Source: Minisyncoccota bacterium (lineage in GTDB: Bacteria > Patescibacteriota > Minisyncoccia > SW-4-49-11). From it: a stretch of DNA of 51,422 bases. The stretch spans positions 1 to 51,422 of the forward strand of contig JAULZW010000004.1 of NCBI GenBank assembly GCA_032117235.1, written 5' to 3'. Every line of letters starts with the position of its first letter. Within the stretch, counting starts at the first letter, position 1. The notes beneath the pieces were generated by a model. The model was not told the DNA's origin, searched no databases, and saw only the letters and a list, made by a program, of their open reading frames with translations. Of this stretch, positions 37,877 through 49,996 are shown in pieces. The position numbers were made by a program, and so were the translations under genes.

Positions 37877-38120
37877 GAACTATCTCTAGGGTAAATCCCA
37901 TGAGTTCAATCACGTATACACAGTCCCGCCAACTTCTTTGCTATATTTTAGGTAAATCTCGTAGAGTAAATATAACGAGCCTTGCTACGGGGGAGAGACT
38001 CCGTAGGGTATTGGAACAACATCCAGACTTTTTTACAGTTATTTTCTCGTGTTCATAGGAAAAGTCCAGAATTGAATGGGTCTAAACACCCCCCAAGCCA
38101 CCCGCTCCGGTGGCTTTTTT
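37877..38120 (+). ncRNA. candidate ~245-nt transcript (ncRNA or 52-aa sORF carrier) bounded by a promoter and an intrinsic terminator
   Basis: Bounded by the promoter at 37842-37870 and the terminator at 38096-38120. Internal hairpins: ctcgt..acgag and ctacgg..ccgtag. It contains an ATG ORF at 37900-38058 (MSSITYTQSRQLLCYILGKSRRVNITSLATGERLRRVLEQHPDFFTVIFSCS) without an obvious SD. No match to any RNA family I can recognise. Confidence 0.3.
38096..38120 (+). terminator. rho-independent terminator
   Basis: agccacc (38096-38102) pairs with ggtggct (38109-38115) around the loop cgctcc, followed by a T-run tttttt c ttttt. Confidence 0.7.
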
Positions 38121-38169
38121 CTTTTTCTCCAAAAATTTTAACTAAAACCTCCTCAAAAAGGCAAAAATA

Positions 38170-38178
38170 TGCTATAAT
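38170..38178 (+). promoter_or_regulatory. extended -10 promoter element (TGCTATAAT) for the R-M operon
   Basis: The 16-nt string aaaaatatgctataat (38163-38178) is identical to 50010-50025 upstream of the Bro-N gene. It lies 23 nt before the hsdM ATG. Confidence 0.45.
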
Positions 38179-38201
38179 ACAAAATATAATAATAATTTTT
38201 T

Positions 38202-40046
38202 ATGGCACAAGGTCAAAATTCCCATTTTGAGGCACAGCTTTTCAAGGCAGCAGATAAACTTCGTAAAAATATTGATGCAGCAGAATATAAAAATGTAGCT
38301 CTTGGACTTATTTTTCTTAAATATATTTCAGAATCTTTTCAAGAACTTTATGACAAATTAGCTCAGGATGAATTCAGTGATCCAGAAGACAGAGATGAAT
38401 ATATTGCCGAGAATATTTTCTTTGTACCCGAACAGGCAAGATGGAAAAATCTCCAAGCCAAAGCAAAACTCCCAACTATTGGACAAGAGCTTGATGAGGC
38501 AATGGAGGTAATCGAGAAAGAAAATCCCGAGCTCAAAAACGTACTACCCAAAGTATTTGGAAAGCCTAATTTAGATAAAGCTTCACTCGGACAATTGATT
38601 GACCTTATTTCTAATACAGAATTACAAGTAGAAAATACTAAATCCAACCTGCCTACCGGAGCTTCGGCGCAGGCAGGAGATTTATTTGGAAGAGTATATG
38701 AATATTTTCTTGGAGAATTTGCCAATGCCGAAGGGAAAAAGGGAGGACAATTCTATACCCCTAAATCCATAGTAAAACTAATGGTAGAAATGATAGAACC
38801 CTACAAAGGTCGTGTCTATGATCCCGCTTGTGGTTCTGGAGGAATGTTTGTGATGAGTGAAAAATTTGTACAAGAACACTCAGGAAATATCAAAGACATC
38901 ACTATTTATGGACAAGAATCCAATCAAACAACTTGGAAGCTCTCCAAAATGAATCTTGCAATCCGTAATATAAACTCACAATTTGTAGCTTGGAATACCG
39001 AAGGAAGTTTTCTCAAAGATGCACATCCTGACCTCAAAGCCGACTATATTCTCGCAAATCCTCCATTTAATCAATCAGATTGGGGAGTAGATATACTTCA
39101 AGATGATGCAAGGTGGAAATATGGAAAACCACCAGCAGGGAATGCTAATTTTGGATGGATGGAGCATATGTTATATCACCTTGCACCTCATGGAGTAATG
39201 GCAACTGTACTAGCTAATGGAAGCCTTAGCTCCAATACTTCAGGAGAAGGAGAAATCCGCAAAACTTTGATTCAATATGATTTGGTGGAATGTATCGTTG
39301 CACTCCCAAAGCAACTATTTTATAATACTGGAATACCCGCCTGTATTTGGATATTGAGAAGAGAAAGAACAACACGCCTGCCTGGCAGTCAGACAGGCAA
39401 TAAAGAAATTCTCTTCATCGATGCCTCAGATATGGGATTCCTCAAAGACCGAGTTCATAGAGAATTTACTGAAGAAGATATAGACACTATTGCCAACACC
39501 TATCATAATTGGCGAAAAAATCCTGAACAATACGAGGATATCAAAGGCTTTTGTAAATCAGCACAAAGGGATGAAGTAGAGAAACATGGTTTTGTTCTCA
39601 CTCCTGGACGCTATGTAGGGATTAAAGATGCAGAAGATGACCTGCCTGCGCCGAAGCCGAACACATTTTATGTTTATGTTATCAAATGTAGTAATGATAC
39701 CTTATATATTGGGCAAACACAAGATTTGAGGAAAAGATGGAAAGAACATATTCTAGGAAAAGCTTCTGACTGGACAAAAAAATATCCACCAAAATTTATT
39801 ATTCACCATGAAATATTCTCTACAAGAGAAGATGCAGTTAATCGAGAAAAAGAATTAAAAACAACCAATGGAAGAAGATATTTGAAAAAAATTATTGAAG
39901 ACGGATCGGCGAGGCAGGCAGGCGGAATACCATTTGAAGAGAAAATGCAAAAACTCACTACCACTCTTGCTGAGCAATTTGCCAAAGAAGAAAAAATGAA
40001 TGTAGAAATCAAAAAGCAACTTGCTAAAATTGGATTTAGTATTTAA
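38202..40046 (+). CDS. hsdM: type I restriction-modification methyltransferase subunit HsdM carrying an internal GIY-YIG domain
   Basis: HsdM N-domain ([31 protein letters not shown]), AdoMet motif [10 protein letters not shown], motif IV NPPFN, C-terminal helix [17 protein letters not shown]. At 614 aa it is ~110 aa longer than the ~500 aa usual for HsdM; the excess is accounted for by three GC-rich inserts. Confidence 0.92.
38648..38677. repeat. 30-nt GC-rich palindromic insert, family 1 (CCTGCCT...AGGCAGG), in frame in hsdM
   Basis: cctgcctaccggagcttcggcgcaggcagg, read as [10 protein letters not shown]. Its reverse complement shares its first 17 nt (cctgcctgcgccgaagc) with the left end of the GIY-YIG insert at 39641. 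Confidence 0.8.
39376..39398. repeat. 23-nt hairpin insert, family 2 (GCCTGCCTGG-n4-CAGACAGGC), in hsdM
   Basis: gcctgcctggcagtcagacaggc matches 21 of 23 nt of 44015-44037 in hsdR. The 9-nt arms pair with one mismatch. Confidence 0.75.
39641..39922 (+). mobile_element. 282-nt TIR-bounded in-frame insert encoding a GIY-YIG (URI/UPF0213-like) nuclease domain
   Basis: The left end is cctgcctgcgccga. The right end ...tcggcgaggcaggcagg has the reverse complement cctgcctgcctcgccga. The inverted terminal repeat is therefore CCTGCCTG + CGCCGA with a 3-nt indel. The cargo encodes [28 protein letters not shown]...[12 protein letters not shown]. The length is divisible by 3. It sits in the linker where ordinary HsdM reads ...GRYVG..EDD-(G)EPFEEKM.... 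Confidence 0.7.
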
Positions 40047-40058
40047 AAAATAATAAAT

Positions 40059-41063
40059 ATGCCTCAATTAACAAACTATCAAAATCTCGCTCAAGATATA
40101 ACAAAAATTCTTGAAAATGGTAGAAATCAAGCTGTATCAAATGTAAATACAATACTCCTTCAAACATATTGGAAAGTGGGAAAAAGTATTGTTGAATTTG
40201 AGCAAAAAGGAAATGTAAAGGCAGAATATGGCAAAGAATTACTCATTTCATTATCCAAAGAACTTAAAAAATATGGGAAAGGATTTAGTAGAAGCAATTT
40301 GCAGTATATGCGGCTTTTGTATATATTTTTTCCAGATTTGCCAGACAGGTCTGGCAGATTGACTTGGAGTCATTATGTGGAGATTTTGGGAGTTTCAGAC
40401 GAGCTTGCTCGTAGTTTTTATGAAAAACAATGTATCTTAGAAAATTGGTCGGTCAGAGAGCTAAAAAGACAAAAACAATCAATGTTATTTGAAAGATTTG
40501 CTCTTGGGAAAAATAAGGAAGAAATTTTGGAGCTTTCACATAAGGGGCAAACAATTCAAAAAGCACAAGATATTATTAAAGAGCCATATATTCTTGAATT
40601 TCTTGGTATACCAGAGCCTCATAATTTTTCAGAAGCTGAACTAGAACAAAAAATTATTGATAACTTGCAAATGTTTTTATTAGAACTTGGAAAAGGTTTT
40701 ACTTTTATCAAAAAGCAATTTCGCATTAGTTTTGATAGTCGTCATCATTATATAGATCTGGTGTTTTATCATCGTATTTTGAAGTGTTTTGTGCTTATTG
40801 ATCTCAAAATCGGCGAGGCTGATCATGTAGATGTAGGTCAGATGAATATGTATCTCAATTATTTCAAGACAGAAGAAAACACCGAAGGAGACAATGAACC
40901 AATCGGAATAATTCTTAGTGCTGAAAAGAATGACATCAAGATGGAATATGCAATGGGCGGAATCAGCAATCAGATGTTTGTATCTAAATATCAACTCTAT
41001 CTCCCAAAACCAGAAGAGTTAGAGGCAGAAATAGAGAATTTTTTATCTCACAATGGAAAATAA
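40059..41063 (+). CDS. YhcG-like PD-(D/E)xK nuclease (DUF1016 family)
   Basis: LTWSHYVEIL block and a C-terminal nuclease core (IDLVFYHRILKCFVLIDLKIGE). This family is often embedded in type I R-M loci. Confidence 0.8.
   Translation: MPQLTNYQNLAQDITKILENGRNQAVSNVNTILLQTYWKVGKSIVEFEQKGNVKAEYGKELLISLSKELKKYGKGFSRSNLQYMRLLYIFFPDLPDRSGRLTWSHYVEILGVSDELARSFYEKQCILENWSVRELKRQKQSMLFERFALGKNKEEILELSHKGQTIQKAQDIIKEPYILEFLGIPEPHNFSEAELEQKIIDNLQMFLLELGKGFTFIKKQFRISFDSRHHYIDLVFYHRILKCFVLIDLKIGEADHVDVGQMNMYLNYFKTEENTEGDNEPIGIILSAEKNDIKMEYAMGGISNQMFVSKYQLYLPKPEELEAEIENFLSHNGK
40339..40356. repeat. perfect 8+8 palindrome tgccagac-ag-gtctggca inside the DUF1016 gene
   Basis: Read directly. It shares the CTGGCAGA / CAGACAGG strings with the family 2 hairpins. 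It encodes DLPDRSGR where relatives usually have a short loop before LSWSHY. Confidence 0.6.
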
Positions 41064-42393
41064 TATGACAGATAAACTACAAAAAAGTAATTTTGTAAAC
41101 TCCACATCCTCGCCAACACAAAACAACAATGTGTCTTCATTGAATAATCCCGTAGAGTCGGCGCCCTCGCCGACATATTCCAACATATCCTCGCCGACAT
41201 ATCCTCAAGACTGGCAAGAGACGACTTTGGGGGAGGTTTGTGAGATCAAAGGTGGGAAGAGGTTGCCAAAAGGAGAAACCCTTGTATTAGAAAAAACAAG
41301 TCATCCATACATTCGTATAACTGATCTTGAAAATAATCAAATCAAAAAGCATCAATTACAATTTGTTACTGATGAAGCTTTTCAAAACATTTCGAGGTAT
41401 ATTGTAAATACTGGTGATGTAATTGTCTCTATTGTTGGAAGTATTGGTTTTGTTGCCTTCATTGATGAAGATTTGGATAATGCTAGTTTAACTGAAAACT
41501 GTGTGAAATTCGTTAACCTAAAAAATCTTGATTCAAAATTTTTATATTACTTTTTAATCTCAAAAAATGGGCAAGAAGAAATAGCTAAAAATACAGTTGG
41601 AGCTGTACAAAAGAAGTTGCCAATTTATGGAGTCCAAAATATTCAACTCCTCCTCCCACCTCTCCCAGAACAAAAAGCCATCGCCTCAGTATTAAGTAGC
41701 TTTGATGATAAGATTGAGCTTTTGCGAGAGCAAAATAAAACATTAGAAGAGATGGGGCAGAACATATTCAAAGAATGGTTCCTGCCTAGCCGCCCGTCTG
41801 TCGGTCGGACAGGGCAGGCAGGTGGGAAGTATGGTGTAGATAATCCTAACGACTTGCCTGAGGACTGGAGAATCGGGAAGTTGGGGGATATCTGTGAAAT
41901 TACATCAGGTAAAAGACCAGAAAATATAAGTGATACAAAAATAGGTATACAACAAATTCCGGTACTTGGAGCAACAAAAATTATGGGATATGTAGATAAA
42001 TATTTATTTGACGGAAAAACACTTGTAATTGGAAGAGTTGGAACTCATGGGGAGGTTCAAAGGTTTAATGAAAAAATATTTCCATCTGATAATACTCTAG
42101 TTTTAAAATCTGATAATTTTATTTTTGTATATCAAATTTTGAAAAGTATTGATTATGTAAAAATGAATAGAGGTGGAGTTCAGCCCCTTATTACACAAAC
42201 AGATTTGAAAAATTATGAGATTATAATTCCAAGTAATGAATTATTGAAAAAGTTCAAAGAAACAATAAATCCAGTATTCGAAAAAATAGATAAAAATAAT
42301 GTTCAAATCCAATTCCTCGCTCGAACTCGTGATGAGCTTTTACCAAAATTGATGAGTGGGCATGTGAGGGTGAATTATCAAGATAAACTATGA
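41053..42393 (+). CDS. hsdS: type I R-M specificity subunit HsdS (two TRDs)
   Basis: It has TRD1, the central conserved helix LPPLPEQKAIASVLSSFDDKIELLREQNKTLEEMGQNIFKEWF, TRD2, and the distal conserved helix (RTRDELLPKLMSG). The N-terminal ~50 aa are low-complexity and REP-derived. Confidence 0.88.
   Translation: MENNMTDKLQKSNFVNSTSSPTQNNNVSSLNNPVESAPSPTYSNISSPTYPQDWQETTLGEVCEIKGGKRLPKGETLVLEKTSHPYIRITDLENNQIKKHQLQFVTDEAFQNISRYIVNTGDVIVSIVGSIGFVAFIDEDLDNASLTENCVKFVNLKNLDSKFLYYFLISKNGQEEIAKNTVGAVQKKLPIYGVQNIQLLLPPLPEQKAIASVLSSFDDKIELLREQNKTLEEMGQNIFKEWFLPSRPSVGRTGQAGGKYGVDNPNDLPEDWRIGKLGDICEITSGKRPENISDTKIGIQQIPVLGATKIMGYVDKYLFDGKTLVIGRVGTHGEVQRFNEKIFPSDNTLVLKSDNFIFVYQILKSIDYVKMNRGGVQPLITQTDLKNYEIIIPSNELLKKFKETINPVFEKIDKNNVQIQFLARTRDELLPKLMSGHVRVNYQDKL
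41151..41174 (+). repeat. REP (GTAG + hairpin), + orientation, inside the hsdS 5' region
   Basis: cGTAGa gtcggcg ccct cgccgac, read as VESAPSPT. Right-arm half copies cctcgcc(g/a)ac also occur at 41108-41117 and 41189-41198. Confidence 0.8.
41781..41822. repeat. 42-nt GC-rich palindromic insert, family 1, in frame in hsdS
   Basis: cctgcctagccgcccgtctgtcggtcggacagggcaggcagg, read as LPSRPSVGRTGQAG. It lies directly after the central conserved helix and uses the same L-P...Q-A-G reading phase as 38648 and 39641. Confidence 0.75.
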
Positions 42394-43274
42394 GAATCTC
42401 ATCAAAAACAATAGATTACCTAAAGGACATTATCACTGGAGATTCTAAGAAAACTAGATATTTATCAGGTCCCCAGCTTGTGGAGTTTTTTAATGAGCTT
42501 GGGTGGCAAGATATATATGGACAAGGGTTTCCTAGTAGGTGGGAATATACAAAGAGAAAATTATTTGAATTAAATCAACTAGATAGGATTGAAGAAATAA
42601 TAGAGCATTATTATAGCCCAATAAATTTTATTGAAGATAAAGAGGGATATAAATATTTAATTAAAGAATTGAATGAATATCTTGCTTTTGAGGATCTTGA
42701 GCTAAAAGTGGAAACTAAAACAGTAAAATTACAACCCAAAATAAATGTCGGCGAGGGCGCCGACTCTACGAAATTCAAGGATGCCGACTGGGGAGACGAC
42801 TATACGAAACAAATTTCAATCAATTTAGAACAATTAAATATAGACCCTAAATTGACTGAAATAATAAAATATCGTTTAATAGAGATCCAAAGAGGTATAG
42901 AAAATAATTGTCCTTTATCAGTTATTATTTTAGTAGGTTCAATATTAGAAGCTGTATTTTTCGATTTAGCACATAAGAATAAGCCGTTATTTAATAGAGC
43001 ACATGCTAGTCCTAAAATTTCTGATAAAGTAAAATTTTTTGGAGAATGGACACTTGGGAACTATATTGATGTTGCAAAAGAATTGGGATATATAAAAGAA
43101 GATCAAAAAAAGTTTAGTATGATATTGAGAGATTTTAGAAATTATATACATCCATCCAAGCAATTAACAGAAGATTTTCATCCTAGCATAGATACAGCTA
43201 AGCAATGTATTTATGTATTAGAGGGTTCTATAAATCAAATTATTGCAAAGACAGAATATGAAAAGGAAAAATAA
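42390..43274 (+). CDS. hypothetical R-M-embedded protein with a C-terminal HEPN-like RxxRNxxH motif
   Basis: The start overlaps the hsdS stop (ATGA). The C-terminal helical region contains ILRDFRNYIHP. It carries an in-frame REP (VGEGADSTKF). Confidence 0.6.
   Translation: MRISSKTIDYLKDIITGDSKKTRYLSGPQLVEFFNELGWQDIYGQGFPSRWEYTKRKLFELNQLDRIEEIIEHYYSPINFIEDKEGYKYLIKELNEYLAFEDLELKVETKTVKLQPKINVGEGADSTKFKDADWGDDYTKQISINLEQLNIDPKLTEIIKYRLIEIQRGIENNCPLSVIILVGSILEAVFFDLAHKNKPLFNRAHASPKISDKVKFFGEWTLGNYIDVAKELGYIKEDQKKFSMILRDFRNYIHPSKQLTEDFHPSIDTAKQCIYVLEGSINQIIAKTEYEKEK
42747..42772 (-). repeat. REP, - orientation, inside ORF 42390..43274
   Basis: gtcggcg aggg cgccgac tCTACgaa. The 45-nt block 42744-42788 matches 43711-43755 at 41 of 45 positions. 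Confidence 0.85.
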
Positions 43275-43920
43275 TCGTTTATCAAATGATTTGTATCAAG
43301 GCGGGTATTGGTATTTTATCACCTTATGCTCTTATAATATGCAATGTATTTTTGTAGAGTCGGCGCCCTCGCCGACACAATCAAGTCAAAAATACAAACT
43401 TAATCACTTGGGGAAAATTATTGAAAAAGTGTGGTTGAATACAACTCAATGTTATTCGGATATTATTCTTGATGAATATGTTATTATGCCGAACCATTTT
43501 CATGGTATAATTGGACTTGATGAGAATTCTTGTTCTTCGGTGACAAGAAAAAAGGTGAGTTTGGGGGATGTGGTCAGTTCGTTTAAGAGTGTTTCTTTGA
43601 GGGAGTTTAAGGAGAGTGTCGGCGGGGGTGTGAGGGAAAATGTCGGCGAAGATTTGAATGACAATGTCGGCGAGGGCGCCGACTCTACGAAGTTCGGTGA
43701 TGTGAAGTACAATGTCGGCGAGGGTGCCGACTCTACGAAGTTTAAGGGTGCCGACTCTACGAAGTCTACTTTGAATAAATATGGAACTTTCTGGCAAAAA
43801 TCTTTTTATGACCATATTATTAGAAATGATAAAGATTTATTTCGTATACAGGAATATATTATAAATAACCCTATAAATTGGGAAATGGATTCTCTGCATC
43901 CTAACAACTTTAATAAATGA
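43243..43920 (+). CDS. REP-associated tyrosine transposase (RAYT; Y1/HUH, IS200-like, COG1943 type)
   Basis: It shows YWYFITLCSYN, the HUH motif in VIMPNHFHGII, the C-terminal block FWQKSFYDHIIRNDKDLFRIQEYIINNP, and the candidate catalytic Tyr in QEYIINNP. An alternative start lies at 43258. The ORF stays open despite REP-derived inserts. Confidence 0.75.
   Translation: MQRQNMKRKNNRLSNDLYQGGYWYFITLCSYNMQCIFVESAPSPTQSSQKYKLNHLGKIIEKVWLNTTQCYSDIILDEYVIMPNHFHGIIGLDENSCSSVTRKKVSLGDVVSSFKSVSLREFKESVGGGVRENVGEDLNDNVGEGADSTKFGDVKYNVGEGADSTKFKGADSTKSTLNKYGTFWQKSFYDHIIRNDKDLFRIQEYIINNPINWEMDSLHPNNFNK
43353..43376 (+). repeat. REP, + orientation, inside the RAYT gene
   Basis: tGTAGa gtcggcg ccct cgccgac, read as VESAPSPT in the same frame as the hsdS copy. 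Confidence 0.85.
43616..43763 (-). repeat. phased array of full and partial REPs inside the RAYT gene
   Basis: Left arms gtcggcg occur at 43618, 43642, 43666 and 43714. Full REPs lie at 43666-43691 and 43714-43739, with a right-arm half at 43746-43763. Spacings are 24 or 48 nt. The array reads ...NVGEGADSTKFGDVKYNVGEGADSTKFKGADSTKS. Confidence 0.85.
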
Positions 43921-43924
43921 CAAT

Positions 43925-46900
43925 ATGCCTACCCTCAACGAATCCCATATAGAACAGAATTTGATAGATCTCCTTGTAGCTCAGGGCTATGAGTATTTTT
44001 ATGGTCTGGATATTGCCTGCCTGGCTGGCAGACAGGCTCCGTATTCGGCAAGTCCACAAAGAGAAAGTTTTAATAGTGTTATATTGGAAAATCATCTCAA
44101 GGAATCTCTCAAAAGATTGAATCCAGATATCCCTGAATCGGCTCGGCATGAGGCTTATCAGCATATTATAAATCTTGGCTCTGCTGATTTGATGGCGAAT
44201 AATGAAAAATTTCATACTTATTTGACTGATGGGATTACGGTTGAATATGTCAAACCTGCCAATGAGTCAGGCGGGGATAATGCTACAAAGGGTATCAATG
44301 TTAAGCTTCTTGATTTGGAGAATGTCTCAAACAATATCTTTTGGGTGGTGAATCAATTCGTTATCAAAGAGAATAATAATGAGAAGAGATTAGATTTGGT
44401 GATTTTTGTGAATGGGCTTCCTTTGGTTGTGGTGGAGTTGAAGAATGCTACTGATGAAAAGGCTACTTTGGAGAGGGCTTTTACTCAAATTCAGAATTAC
44501 AAAAAAGCTGTTCCGAGTATTTTTTATTATAATGCTTTATGTATTATCTCGGATGGGATTGATGCTCGTATGTCGAGTGTGTCTGCTCCTTTTGAGCGAT
44601 TTGTTGCTTGGAAGTCTCCTGAGAAAAAGGAGAATGGGATTGTGCCTGAAATGCAGATTATGGCTGAAAAAATGCTTAATCCTGAGGTTTTGCTTCGATT
44701 GATTCGATATAATACGGTTTTTGAACAAGAGGAGCAAAAGGATGAAAAAACGGGGTTATTATCTGTGGTGAAGATTAAGAAAATTGCTGCCTATCATCAA
44801 TATTATGCGGTGGAAAAGGCGGTTAAGGAAACTTTGAGGGCTACTCATTCTGATGAGGGTAATAGGAAAATTGGGGTGATTTGGCATACTCAAGGTTCGG
44901 GGAAGTCTTTGTCTATGGTGTTTTATACGGGGCAAATTGTGGTGGAACCAGAGATGAAGAATCCGACTATTGTTATTTTGACGGATAGGAATGATCTTGA
45001 TGATCAGTTATTCACGACTTTTGGAAATTGTAAGCAATTATTAAGGCAAACTCCTATGCAAGCGGAAAGTCGTGAGCATTTAAAAGAGCTTCTCAAGGTT
45101 GCTGGGGGTGGTATTATTTTTACAACTATTCAAAAATTTGCTCCTCGTGAGGGGAATGTGTATGAGACTTTATCTGAGCGGTCGAATATTGTGGTTGTGG
45201 CGGATGAGGCTCATCGTAGTCAATATGGATTCAAGGGGCGAGAGGTAGAAACGGTGGATGGGTCTGAAATTCGATATGGGAATGCTAAGTATCTGAGGGA
45301 TGCTTTGCCGAGGGCTTCTTTTATTGGATTTACGGGGACACCGATTGAAAGGGAAGATAGATCTACAAGAAATGTGTTTGGTGATGAAATTGATATTTAT
45401 GATATTAAACAGGCGGTGGATGATGGGGCTACGGTGCCGATTAGTTATGAATCGCGGTTGGTTAAAATTAAATTGAATAAGGAGTTGGTCAATAAAATTG
45501 ATTATGCTATTGATGAGATTGAAGGTGCTACTGAGGAGCAAAAGGAAAAGGCGAAAAAGAAAAATGCTCAAATTGATGCGGTGGTTGGTCATCCTGATAG
45601 ATTAAAGGATTTGGCTAAGGATATTGTGGAGCATTTTGAGGCGAGGCAAAGAACCTTTGAGGGGAAGGCGATGGTGGTATGTATGACAAGGCAAATTGCG
45701 GTTTGGTTATATAAGGAAATTATTGCTCTTCGTCCTGATTGGCATAGTGATGAATTGATGCAAGGGAAGCTCAAAATTGTGATGACTTCAAGTAGTGATG
45801 ATCCTGAAGATTTTCAAGCTCATCATACGAATAAGAAGGATAGAAAAAAACTTGCTCTGAGGCTCAAGGATATCAATGATCCTCTTCAAATGGTGATTGT
45901 GCAATCTATGTGGTTGACGGGATTTGATGTGCCGTGTTTGCATACGATGTATATTGATAAAAAGATGCAGGGTGCTAATTTGATGCAGGCTATTGCTCGG
46001 GTTAATCGGGTATATAAGGATAAACCAGGAGGATTGATTGTGGATTATATTGGTATTGGTCAGGATCTTAGAAAGGCAATGGGGGTTTATACTCAAAGTG
46101 GGGGAGAAGGTCAAGCTGTGTCGGATATTGCAGAGGCAATTGCTGGTATGAAGACCAAATTTGAGATTGTGGAGCAAATGTTCCACCAGCCTTTGCCAAG
46201 TCTTCGTCTGGCAGGTGGCTTTGAATATAAAAATTATTTTAAGGCTGAGAGTAGTGAAAAATTACATATTTTATTGGGGGCTACAAACTTTATTTTGCAA
46301 AATGATAATCTAAAAAATAGGTTTTTGACGGAAGTGACTGCTTTGTCTAAGTTATTTGCGATGGCTGTTCCAAGTTTTGAGGCTGAGCAAGTAAGAGATG
46401 AAGTTGCATTCTTCCAAGCGGTTAAAGCCCGTATCAATAAATTTACACCTAGTGGGGGAGTCTCAGACAGGCAGGTCGAAACGGCGGTAAGACAAATTGT
46501 AGAAGAAGCTCTGGCGAGTGATGGAGTGGTGGATGTGTTCGAGGCTGCGGGGATGAAAACTCCGACACTGGACATTCTATCAGAGGAATTTTTGCTTGAG
46601 GTCAAAAATATGGAGCAAAAAAATCTTGCCTTTGAACTTCTTCGTAAGCTCCTGAATGATGAGGTAAAATTGCGAAAAAGAAAAAATATGGCTCAAGGAA
46701 AAAAGTTTTCTGAGATGCTTGAGAGTGTAATCAATAGGTATCATAATAATCAAATTGATACGGCTCAAGTGATTCAGGAACTTTCAGAAATTGCTCGGGC
46801 GATGAAATTGGAGGACAAAAAAGCAGAAGATATTGGACTTACTCCAGAAGAATATGCATTTTATAGTGTACTTGCTCAGAATGATTCTACGAAATTTTTA

Positions 46901-47119
46901 GATGATCATAAAATGAAAGAACTAATTCATGTTATTGTTGATATTATTCGCAAAAATGCTACAGTTGATTGGGAAAAACGAGAGGATGTTAGAGCTAAAC
47001 TTCGCCTTACGGTCAAAAAAATTCTCATGAGATATGGCTATCCACCTGATCTTGCAAGAATAGAAGCTGATAAAGTTCTGGAACAGAGTGAACTATTGGC
47101 TAAGGAATTGACGCAGTAG
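43925..47119 (+). CDS. hsdR: type I restriction enzyme R subunit HsdR
   Basis: N-terminal nuclease region, SF2 helicase motif I TQGSGKS, motif II VVADEAHRSQ, and later motifs (QAIARVNR). 1064 aa. Confidence 0.93.
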   Translation: MPTLNESHIEQNLIDLLVAQGYEYFYGLDIACLAGRQAPYSASPQRESFNSVILENHLKESLKRLNPDIPESARHEAYQHIINLGSADLMANNEKFHTYLTDGITVEYVKPANESGGDNATKGINVKLLDLENVSNNIFWVVNQFVIKENNNEKRLDLVIFVNGLPLVVVELKNATDEKATLERAFTQIQNYKKAVPSIFYYNALCIISDGIDARMSSVSAPFERFVAWKSPEKKENGIVPEMQIMAEKMLNPEVLLRLIRYNTVFEQEEQKDEKTGLLSVVKIKKIAAYHQYYAVEKAVKETLRATHSDEGNRKIGVIWHTQGSGKSLSMVFYTGQIVVEPEMKNPTIVILTDRNDLDDQLFTTFGNCKQLLRQTPMQAESREHLKELLKVAGGGIIFTTIQKFAPREGNVYETLSERSNIVVVADEAHRSQYGFKGREVETVDGSEIRYGNAKYLRDALPRASFIGFTGTPIEREDRSTRNVFGDEIDIYDIKQAVDDGATVPISYESRLVKIKLNKELVNKIDYAIDEIEGATEEQKEKAKKKNAQIDAVVGHPDRLKDLAKDIVEHFEARQRTFEGKAMVVCMTRQIAVWLYKEIIALRPDWHSDELMQGKLKIVMTSSSDDPEDFQAHHTNKKDRKKLALRLKDINDPLQMVIVQSMWLTGFDVPCLHTMYIDKKMQGANLMQAIARVNRVYKDKPGGLIVDYIGIGQDLRKAMGVYTQSGGEGQAVSDIAEAIAGMKTKFEIVEQMFHQPLPSLRLAGGFEYKNYFKAESSEKLHILLGATNFILQNDNLKNRFLTEVTALSKLFAMAVPSFEAEQVRDEVAFFQAVKARINKFTPSGGVSDRQVETAVRQIVEEALASDGVVDVFEAAGMKTPTLDILSEEFLLEVKNMEQKNLAFELLRKLLNDEVKLRKRKNMAQGKKFSEMLESVINRYHNNQIDTAQVIQELSEIARAMKLEDKKAEDIGLTPEEYAFYSVLAQNDSTKFLDDHKMKELIHVIVDIIRKNATVDWEKREDVRAKLRLTVKKILMRYGYPPDLARIEADKVLEQSELLAKELTQ
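44015..44037. repeat. 23-nt hairpin insert, family 2, in the hsdR N-terminal region
   Basis: gcctgcctggctggcagacaggc, read as ACLAGRQA. Partner at 39376-39398. Confidence 0.75.
46464..46475. repeat. half-site cagacaggcagg of the GC-rich palindrome families, in hsdR
   Basis: String match only; no paired arm found nearby. Confidence 0.35.
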
Positions 47120-47135
47120 ATAATAATAAATAAAT

Positions 47136-47375
47136 ATGAAACTCTTCCGTTACCGTAAACCATCGCTCAAAACATTGCTCGGAGTGACAAAGCTGAAGCG
47201 TAGGATAAAGAAGGCTACAGGAATTTCTGCTATTCAATCTCTCAGTCCTTCTCGAGTAAAGCAAAAGATCAGATACAATATAGGGTATAATAAACCTATG
47301 TTCAAACACACTAGAGAACTGAGCAAGGGCAAAGTACCGAGCTTATTTGGTTGGTTCTCAAAGTGGTTGAAATAA
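47136..47375 (+). CDS. small basic hypothetical protein (79 aa)
   Basis: ORF starts 17 nt after hsdR. K/R-rich. Followed by the hairpin at 47393-47418. Confidence 0.45.
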   Translation: MKLFRYRKPSLKTLLGVTKLKRRIKKATGISAIQSLSPSRVKQKIRYNIGYNKPMFKHTRELSKGKVPSLFGWFSKWLK

Positions 47376-49885: not shown

Positions 49886-49910
49886 TAGTTAGTAACTATT
49901 CTATATAAAA

Positions 49911-49996
49911 GGCGACGAGAGGTCGCCCCTACGAAAAATAATGTCGGCGGGGTCGCCGACTCTACGAAATAATGGAGGGACTAAAGCCCTACGAGG
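49911..49996 (-). repeat. intergenic cluster of three hairpin+CTACGA REP units
   Basis: The three units are ggcgac-gagag-gtcgcc cCTACgaa (49911-49935), gtcggcg-gggt-cgccgac tCTACgaa (49943-49968) and aggg-actaaag-ccct-ACGA with CTAC at 49989-49992. Confidence 0.8.

Follow-up and report, generated by a model that had tools for sequence, protein, structure and literature searches.

A hairpin-ended GIY-YIG nuclease cassette residing in frame in a Type I restriction-modification operon of a Minisyncoccota bacterium: a probable selfish mobile element

Introduction

Several described systems join a nuclease, a DNA hairpin or an unbroken host reading frame, and the locus reported here combines traits of three of them, namely hairpin-associated GIY-YIG elements, in-frame palindromic repeats and inteins. 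It is a 282-nucleotide (nt) cassette encoding a GIY-YIG nuclease, found within hsdM, the methylase gene of a Type I restriction-modification (RM) operon, in a stretch of DNA from a Minisyncoccota bacterium (contig JAULZW010000004.1, assembly GCA_032117235.1). We refer to that whole stretch of 51,422 nt as the window, and hsdM (38202-40046) is the host gene under study. Our estimate is a probability of roughly 0.8 that positions 39641-39922 of the window are one copy of a widespread, selfish and autonomous mobile element, consisting of a single in-frame GIY-YIG module with hairpin ends and accompanied by relatives that resemble miniature inverted-repeat transposable elements (MITEs).

The nearest described system is that of the Ssn nucleases, GIY-YIG proteins of about 94 amino acids (aa) that bind a single-stranded DNA (ssDNA) hairpin and cut beside it, and that also cleave when the two halves of the hairpin lie on separate strands (Chenal et al. 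2025, PMC11893778). Ssn genes are bracketed by hairpin-forming NTS/SRM repeats, of which many cargo-less copies are dispersed in the genome, a layout that the authors regarded as similar to that of insertion sequences, and SRM abundance was shown to correlate with the presence of Ssn (PMC11893778). Their family tree excluded proteins longer than 150 aa and embedded copies are not discussed, so any such copies would have been missed (PMC11893778). Like an Ssn locus, the cassette encodes only a GIY-YIG domain of about 94 aa, is bracketed by inverted repeats that form hairpins, and has cargo-less copies. Unlike the free-standing ssn genes, which have a start and a stop of their own, it is translated within a host protein and shows a strong bias towards RM genes. 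Its ends, moreover, are the two halves of one split stem and differ in sequence from SRM repeats; the SRM motif (HGTCWY...RNCYNB) matches neither the window nor the cassette termini.

A single embedded case has been reported before. HsdR of Methylococcus capsulatus (MCA0838) carries, as an insertion, a GIY-YIG domain that belongs to the Slx1/UPF0213 cluster (Dunin-Horkawicz et al. 2006, PMC1564403), and a close homologue with 80% identity is without it; the authors suspected that the insertion was recent and raised the possibility of parasitism (PMC1564403). It was presented as a unique case, and no termini, further hosts, short derivatives or element concept were described (PMC1564403). Beyond these two papers we found no description of the element; our coverage of the literature was incomplete and a prior description is possible. 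The cassette thus appears to be essentially undescribed.

Inteins with homing endonucleases are, like the cassette, in-frame selfish elements that encode a nuclease, have no start or stop of their own and need host translation. The cassette differs from them in that there is no protein splicing, so that the domain stays in the mature protein, in that its GIY-YIG domain lacks a DNA-binding extension, in having inverted repeats at the nucleotide level, and in occupying many unrelated sites instead of one homing site. The Rickettsia palindromic elements, which Ogata et al. are said to have reported in 2000, are non-coding, 100-150 base pairs long and confined to one genus. In the same manner as those elements, the 21-42-nt relatives of the cassette are translated as an extra surface peptide that the host protein tolerates; unlike them, the full-length member here has its own enzyme, occurs in many phyla and is concentrated in RM genes. 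Finally, IS200/IS605 elements and the REP/RAYT systems (RAYT, REP-associated tyrosine transposase) rely on a Y1 HUH transposase for both the cutting and the rejoining of DNA, have a separate subterminal hairpin at each end and are not translated in frame. The cassette has in common with them the lack of a target duplication, a dependence on hairpins that implies an ssDNA stage, and abundant cargo-less hairpins, but its only gene encodes a GIY-YIG hydrolase and no Y1 HUH enzyme.

Results

A first-pass annotation, made from the letters of the window, had proposed that hsdM is interrupted in the linker between its methyltransferase core and its C-terminal helix by an in-frame insert of 282 nt (94 codons) with inverted terminal repeats and no target-site duplication, and it had asked for an alignment with hsdM genes that lack the insert. 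We aligned the window with four alleles, L128 and L130 filled and L126 and L129 empty, all 93-96% identical, and the proposed boundaries held to the base. Empty alleles read GATGA/TGGAAT (the slash marks the insertion point) and filled alleles read GATGA-CCTGCCTGCGCC...GGCAGGCAGG-TGGAAT; the insert, which begins CCTGCCTGCG and ends GGCAGGCAGG, is exactly 282 nt long, and a target-site duplication is absent. At the protein level empty HsdM reads AEDD/GIPFEE, which places the insertion between the methylase core and the C-terminal helix as proposed. A search with full-length HsdM returned homologues that are 96-98% identical outside the inserts, some with the GIY-YIG segment (P0155-P0157, 598-605 aa) and some without it (P0159-P0162 and P0165, 503-505 aa). 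An ancient fusion carried by all HsdM orthologues, which the annotation had named as an outcome that would refute mobility, is therefore not what the alleles display. Filled allele L128 is 95.8% identical to the empty L129 and 94.7% identical to the filled window copy, so either the cassette has been gained or lost more than once or the alleles recombine.

The insertion cuts a GAT codon after its second base, and the element is consequently read GAC-CTG-CCT...CAG-GCA-GGT. It has no start codon, stop codon or ribosome-binding site and is expressed solely through the host frame (codon phase 2), its repeat ends being translated as the linker peptides LPAP.. and ..RQAG and the whole forming an extra domain in a tolerant surface linker. 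A 137-aa protein that is named 'GIY-YIG nuclease family protein' at NCBI (P0001) is the 3' part of an hsdM, comprising the cassette and the C-terminal helix, that was called as a gene of its own; embedded cassettes can thus be mis-annotated as free-standing nucleases.

The encoded nuclease domain is intact. Codons 39642-39923 alone match the Pfam GIY-YIG family (PF01541) with E = 1.3e-15, and by sequence the nearest solved proteins are UPF0213 members BH0048 and EF2693, with an alignment to I-TevI as well. An AlphaFold model of the cassette alone has a predicted local distance difference test score (pLDDT) of 92.7 and the element order beta-beta-alpha-alpha-beta-alpha-alpha (E-E-H-H-E-H-H), and the nearest solved folds according to Foldseek are UPF0213 and Slx1, with probabilities of 0.99-1.0. 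Motifs, catalytic Arg, His and Glu, and fold all place the domain in the GIY-YIG superfamily, and it is an intact member of the UPF0213/Slx1 branch. Eukaryotic members of this branch cut branched DNA, for which Slx1 is a structure-selective nuclease. I-TevI-type nucleases are a poorer comparison, the 94 aa holding a catalytic domain only, with no DNA-binding extension and no open reading frame (ORF) of its own. The score against TIGR01453 is 23 bits, where the cut-off is 56, and no model in PADLOC, PHROGs or NCBIfam is specific to the cassette. Full-length HsdM is poorly modelled (mean pLDDT 53.8); the insert is its best-predicted part and has low-confidence linkers on either side.

Among 124 relatives, Y12, Y22-I-G24, R32, W33, H36, E57, R68-E69 and K73-T74 are conserved at 90% or more, and the catalytic residues (Y, Y-I-G, R, H, E) are kept despite saturated silent sites, which shows purifying selection on the nuclease. 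The motifs that the annotation had read as intact are near-invariant, and catalytic decay, which would have spoken against mobility, is not seen. Two metagenome contigs (L291 and L292) have on their minus strands an hsdM gene with 10-12 in-frame TGA codons and a cassette of the type that we label K, indicating a host that uses genetic code 25, in which TGA encodes Gly (Gracilibacteria/SR1 type). Conserved glycines of these cassettes, including the G of YIG, are encoded by TGA, so the cassette is read in the host's own code.

An earlier word-index protein search with the 94 aa was too insensitive and returned only four relatives. With the same query, HMMER run exhaustively against 1.84 billion representative proteins gave 6801 matches, 312 of them at E values of 1e-10 or lower. 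Most of the best 150 matches cover query residues 1-94 fully, and nearly all lie at varied positions within longer proteins (up to 1101 aa). The full LPxP...RQAG unit could be delimited in 95 of these 150; it is nearly always 94 aa long, and its consensus ends are LPAP[RKQ]P...RQAG. When 124 representatives were scanned with Pfam, GIY-YIG was found in all, and their hosts belonged to 31 Pfam families, a number that is a lower bound for the element. The annotation had called for a search for copies in unrelated host genes with the same termini, and such copies are numerous. About half of the hosts (63 of 124) contain Methylase_S and are HsdS proteins. Others of RM type have HSDR_N, N6_Mtase, DUF1156 methylase or Type III methylase domains, and the remainder include trigger factor, SelR (MsrB), QueC, TatD, TrmD, HPPK, arginyl-tRNA synthetase (ArgRS), MGMT, SET and TfoX, among others. 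Within HsdS its place is the start of the conserved helices (...VPQDPND/unit/EPASVLLERI...); one HsdS has two cassettes, and another has an internally deleted copy adjoining a full one.

A scan of genomes, one per species, found 80 loci in well over a dozen phyla, among them Saccharibacteria and other Patescibacteria, Bacteroidota, Chloroflexota, Nitrospirota, Planctomycetota, Verrucomicrobiota, Desulfobacterota, Acidobacteriota and several classes of Proteobacteria; one record is labelled as an archaeon. The frame is open on both sides of the cassette in 50 of 52 genomic loci, and identity between cassettes at unrelated sites can be 77-86%. The dinucleotide before the cassette is GA at about 70% of sites, and Y-G comes after the cassette, in hosts other than HsdS as well. 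The HsdS site, GAY/GARCCNGCN, resembles the element's own left end, GA/CCTGCC. The GA/YG preference may reflect target specificity, or it may reflect selection for Asp-Gly or Asp-Glu loops.

The ends of the cassette were compared in 51 genomic copies from genomes of 25-66% GC. They are near-constant, CCTGCCTGCGCCGCGNCCNGG on the left and CCNGGNCGGRCGCGGCAGGCAGG on the right. Third positions with four-fold degeneracy have an entropy of 0-0.33 bit over codons 1-4 and of 0.16-0.53 bit over codons 89-93, as against 1.45-2.0 bits over codons 5-88, and the host base completing the final Gly codon varies again (1.59 bit), so the nucleotide constraint begins and stops exactly at the edges of the element. 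Two helices join the ends, one formed by bases 1-9 and the last 9, the other by bases 14-20 and the bases numbered 16-22 from the 3' end. Of all cells, 88% are paired, compared to 26-53% with a slid partner; covariation scores 0.122, compared to 0.086 for shuffles, of which none in 500 reached it; and 28 cells were changed on both sides where 11 were expected. The third base of an Arg CGN codon pairs with the third base of a Gly GGN codon, both positions are silent, and the two covary (GC 16, AU 10, CG 4, GU 4, UA 2). In the window copy, both the minimum-free-energy and the centroid fold of the ssDNA pair the first base of the element with the last, and the inverted repeats proposed at the outset are thus sustained by fold, pairing and covariation alike. 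Selection at the nucleotide level, with covariation, keeps the two ends complementary, and a plain protein fusion does not explain such silent-site conservation and covariation.

Paired ends could also bring RNA junctions together, and an in-frame position is typical of inteins, so one might ask whether the insert is lost from the transcript or the protein, as introns and inteins are, leaving a mature HsdM that lacks it. We consider this very improbable. The junctions are D/LPAP and RQAG/G, with neither the N-terminal Cys/Ser/Thr of an intein nor its C-terminal His-Asn followed by Cys/Ser/Thr, and the GIY-YIG fold accounts for all 94 aa, leaving no Hint domain. Rfam and tRNA scans of the window gave no match, so there is no explanation by way of an intron, a ribozyme or a tRNA. 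The missing start codon, the constant length of 282 nt and the open frames in 50 of 52 loci point to selection for read-through translation, which a spliced insert would not need.

The constrained ends also bear on the idea that the cassette is a domesticated, functional RM domain, for example an extra structure-specific or ssDNA nuclease of Type I complexes that has spread by selection and operon transfer. Some 60% of the host proteins are RM subunits, conserved linkers of HsdS and HsdM recur as insertion sites, the catalytic residues are conserved, and the domain is predicted to be an independent module on flexible linkers, all of which would suit such a role. Protein function does not, however, require ends that are frozen at silent sites and covary. 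Neither would it lead us to expect the same domain in trigger factor, QueC, TrmD, ArgRS, HPPK, MsrB, TatD and other housekeeping proteins, its presence and absence among alleles 96-98% identical, or cargo-less hairpins that share its ends and are inserted in those same genes. Domestication as the whole explanation therefore seems improbable to us.

Those cargo-less hairpins are plentiful. The operon holds six shorter CCTGCC...GGCAGG hairpins of 21, 21, 21, 30, 30 and 42 nt, all multiples of 3 (Table 1), and none of this type occurs in the remaining 42 kilobases (kb) of the window. Each is a precise insertion or deletion relative to alleles 91-96% identical, with no clear target duplication, and those tested fold as hairpins. 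A target-site duplication is absent from the 282-, 42- and 30-nt units alike, as is the case for IS200/IS605. The reverse complement of the 30-nt unit at 38648-38677 has the first 17 nt of the cassette, a match with a chance expectation of about 6e-6 in 51 kb. The 42-nt unit at 41781-41822 folds at -14.8 kcal/mol (z -3.4) and has CCTGCCT and GGCAGGCAGG in common with the cassette. Both likenesses had been seen at first pass, that of the 30-nt palindrome holding by way of its reverse complement. The unit at 39377-39397 is found in the window, P0155 and P0156 and is missing from P0157 and the empty alleles. The three inserts of hsdM and the one of hsdS each interrupt a codon between its second and third bases and are read xxC-CTG-CCT...CAG-GCA-GGx, which agrees with the earlier claim that the 282-, 30- and 42-nt units, all multiples of 3, are read in one L-P...Q-A-G phase; two of the three short units in hsdR are in other phases. 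Only the six short units have the properties of in-frame palindromic repeats (MITEs similar to the Rickettsia palindromic elements).

Joined to its own complement, the shared 17-mer makes a hairpin of 30/33 nt, CCTGCCTGCGCCGAAGC(GG)CTTCGGCAGGCAGG, that occurs in many phyla. We found it in Lentisphaerae, Elusimicrobia, Kiritimatiellae, Latescibacterota, Bacteroidota and Spirochaetes and in gammaproteobacterial hsdM genes, some copies being within ORFs and some clearly intergenic. Scanning genomes with the 17-mer gave mostly chance matches in GC-rich genomes; about 22 of 124 loci were true hairpins, and one locus (L050) was an additional full cassette besides L001. The short palindromes may have arisen from the cassette, or they may serve it as landing pads. 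The earlier proposal of a mobile in-frame cassette with MITE-like derivatives, which the annotation had set beside a functional HsdM-nuclease fusion, is supported.

The hairpins also raise the possibility that the hairpin-ended unit is mobile and the GIY-YIG enzyme is not its transposase. Mobility would then depend on an enzyme acting in trans (Y1/HUH, of the RAYT/IS200 kind), on host recombination or replication slippage, or on the GIY-YIG gene as a homing invader, one that entered the loop of a pre-existing short palindrome and spreads only where it cuts an empty palindrome and repair copies it in. Short hairpins do outnumber cassettes, by six to one in the operon and with 30/33-nt forms in many genomes; only the outer 7-17 nt of the short hairpins are in common with the cassette, and their insertion sites are without the GA/YG bias. 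Insertion beside hairpins without target duplication typifies ssDNA transposition of the IS200/IS605 type, a RAYT gene lies within the same operon, and the cassette ends are the two halves of a widespread 30-nt hairpin, as if a gene had been dropped into its loop. The local RAYT, however, goes with a different repeat of the GTAG-type REP kind and is itself interrupted, and cassettes occur in many genomes and at many sites with no requirement for a linked transposase. Strong purifying selection on the nuclease everywhere is what one would expect if its activity serves the element, and the covarying helix 2 is specific to the cassette and lies partly within its coding part. On balance we regard this explanation as unlikely, although it is the main rival to our reading.

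Table 1. Positions of the cassette, its short relatives and their host genes in the window. In the remarks a slash marks the empty insertion site.
Feature	Position	Strand	Remarks
282-nt GIY-YIG cassette	39641-39922	+	codons 39642-39923, read LPAPKPN...SARQAG; no start or stop codon of its own
Left terminal inverted repeat, CCTGCCTGCGCCGAAGCCGA	39641-39660	+	helix 1, bases 1-9 (with 10-11); helix 2, bases 14-20
Right terminal inverted repeat, ACGGATCGGCGAGGCAGGCAGG	39901-39922	+	pairs with the left end
30-nt cargo-less hairpin in hsdM	38648-38677	+	inverted relative to the cassette; empty site TCCAA/AGAT; lacking in all 14 homologues compared
21-nt hairpin in hsdM	39377-39397	+	read LPGSQTG; boundaries ambiguous by 1-2 nt
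42-nt hairpin in hsdS	41781-41822	+	read LPSRPSVGRTGQAG; empty site GAATGGTT/TGGGAA in L126 and L128
21-nt hairpin in hsdR	44016-44036	+	read CLAGRQA in a different codon phase; absent from L128, present in L126
21-nt degenerate element in hsdR, CCTGCCAATGAGTCAGGCGGG	44255-44275	-	minus strand CCCGCCTG...GGCAGG; absent from L126 and L128; empty site GTCAAA/GATAAT
30-nt degenerate element in hsdR, CCAGCC...CTGGCAGG	46186-46215	-	absent from L126; empty site TTCCA/TGGCTT
Type I RM operon	38202-47119		order: hsdM, DUF1016/YhcG gene, hsdS, unknown ORF, RAYT gene, hsdR
hsdM, Type I RM methylase	38202-40046	+	614 aa; host of three in-frame inserts; Pfam, PADLOC, alignment with 14 homologues
hsdS, specificity subunit	41053-42393	+	host of the 42-nt element; Pfam Methylase_S, E 2e-45
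hsdR, restriction subunit	43925-47119	+	ORF of 1064 aa; host of three short elements

Pfam matches and the gene tables of homologous operons agree in showing hsdM, hsdS and hsdR within a single operon, as in Type I RM systems. In HsdM, Pfam finds HsdM_N at residues 10-136, N6_Mtase at 158-479 and GIY-YIG at 489-558 (E 3e-14); the PADLOC model MTase_I matches with E 9e-195, in two separate stretches. The L126 homologue of the hsdR product has HSDR_N, ResIII and T1RH-like_C domains. The window is AT-rich, with about 30% GC, and its genome is of the Parcubacteria/Patescibacteria kind, the encoded Lon protease having 90% identity to the Lon of a Candidatus Parcubacteria metagenome-assembled genome. 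GC content is 0.37-0.40 in the RM region (38000-47200) and about 0.30 in the remaining window, and relatives of the operon in other metagenomes have differing accessory genes among hsdM, hsdS and hsdR (DUF1016; Abi_C with DUF5677; an AAA_13 ATPase). The operon looks like a modular island with horizontal movement.

Other repeats and inserts occur in and around these genes. The RAYT gene (43243-43920) matches NCBIfam NF047646 with E 9e-16, which is below the cut-off. A second GC-rich repeat family, GTAGAGTCGGCGCCCTCGCCGAC, has copies at 41146-41182, 42742-42803, 43352-43385, 43608-43741 and 49908-49969, and it looks like a classic GTAG-type REP. Copies of it lie inside ORFs, including the RAYT gene itself and the 5' part of hsdS, and they are translated in frame as VESAPSPT or VGEGADSTKF according to orientation. 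Upstream of hsdM, the GC-rich intergenic segment 37755-38121 can form a number of strong hairpins, namely CCCCCTTTGGAGGGGG, CTACGGGGGAGAGACTCCGTAG and AGCCACCCGCTCCGGTGGCT, the last with a T run behind it, and has no Rfam match; they may be terminators or additional repeat elements. Among close HsdM homologues, P0163 (Gallionella) has another in-frame insert family, two copies of PRPPEGG(E/D)xVxSPxGxLG, and the HsdM homologue P0201 has a 10-aa LPAPGLRQAG hairpin at yet another site.

A group of Bacteroidota matches that cover residues 7-88 were first taken as free-standing genes; this was ruled out, and they are a variant embedded in HsdR. The variant is a GIY-YIG cassette at one HsdR site in Bacteroidota and Ignavibacteria and has different ends (WPVCVQRTGRKSADG...GRKWIKREIEAGRN-KPF; loci L169, L173, L175, L177, L182 of Tangfeifania diversioriginum DSM 27063, L194, L195, L201, L203 and L205). 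Among isolates, T. diversioriginum DSM 27063 and Pleomorphovibrio marinus SW125 have variants. The HsdR genes of these Bacteroidota and Ignavibacteria loci hold many short in-frame inserts of palindromic or repeated peptides, such as LPASAGQAGG and FPSSGGVAESRGGK repeats. A DUF559 (Vsr-like) nuclease domain is also found in frame in RM proteins, namely in HsdR of Ignavibacteria, Bacteroidales and Chitinophagales (L183, L187 and L203) and in a DUF1156 methylase (P0029), where a repeated peptide, SPSPSDMERGPGGE, brackets the insert. Nuclease cassettes that reside in frame may thus be of wider occurrence.

Discussion

We suggest that the cassette of this hsdM is one copy of a selfish, autonomous mobile element. 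Its architecture is a 94-codon module with imperfect terminal inverted repeats of about 20 nt, 5'-CCTGCCTGCGCC...GGCAGGCAGG-3'. Allele comparison and distribution together point firmly to a unit that moves or has very recently moved, and its placements reveal a strong bias towards Type I RM genes and GA/YG sites.

A mechanism can be proposed in which the two ends pair to form a panhandle in ssDNA or a cruciform in duplex DNA. The encoded nuclease, to judge by its kinship with Slx1 and Ssn, would recognise its own paired ends or empty hairpins and nick at the base of the stem, after which host repair or replication would copy or move the unit to new sites or to pre-existing short hairpins. The 21-42-nt CCTGCC...GGCAGG hairpins of hsdM, hsdS and hsdR would be non-autonomous relatives acted on in trans. 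Only insertions that preserve the frame would survive, others killing both the host gene and the expression of the nuclease itself; a frame-breaking insertion in the M or S subunit would, in addition, expose the cell to its own restriction enzyme.

Several observations weigh against an autonomous mobile element. Rejoining DNA is beyond a GIY-YIG hydrolase, and integration therefore calls for a second activity, which an enzyme encoded elsewhere could supply. The case for mobility rests on allele comparison and distribution. HsdM-borne cassettes have mostly other HsdM-borne cassettes as nearest neighbours, and therefore much of the history of the cassette in hsdM may be vertical, or may reflect homing to one site, rather than free transposition. 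Exact-match searches of metagenome contigs found no near-identical cassette copies, and a degenerate pattern added only two further hsdM copies, so these searches offer no example of a very recent jump of a K-type cassette into another gene. No relative of the cassette was found in IMG/VR viral contigs or PLSDB plasmids, and a vehicle between phyla was thus not found there. The heavy bias to RM genes is equally expected of a useful accessory domain, and the GA/YG preference is possibly the result of selection on the protein, the six short units of the window being without it. In the stem, G-T wobbles are as frequent as A-C mismatches, a count that favours neither strand and neither DNA nor RNA as the molecule in which the stem acts.

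With these points in mind, we still favour the mobile element, and we believe there is a fair chance that the cassette deserves a class of its own. We lean, by a little, towards the further view that it is the autonomous founder of an unrecognised class, an 'open-frame' transposon whose gene has no start or stop and lives as a guest domain of a host protein, whose ends both supply linker codons and form the DNA stem recognised by its own Slx1/Ssn-like nuclease, and which prefers RM genes and has ridden them between phyla; the same logic may extend to the DUF559 inserts. The domain may also have a secondary function within RM complexes.

If this is correct, the element would follow a selfish strategy between those of inteins and MITEs, entering genes without breaking them, borrowing their expression signals and staying in the protein. 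It would account for many puzzling GIY-YIG 'fusions' in the databases, including miscalled 130-aa 'GIY-YIG proteins' such as P0001, and would give proteins a concrete means of acquiring new domains. The 94-aa nuclease, tolerated in many proteins and possibly recognising a defined stem of about 20 nt, may be of interest as a tool. With enzyme and repeat physically one unit, tests become possible of what moves in-frame palindromic repeats, the Rickettsia elements for instance, and of what purpose Ssn-type nucleases serve. Finally, the strong preference for Type I RM genes suggests that a mobile element and the cellular barrier to foreign DNA influence one another.

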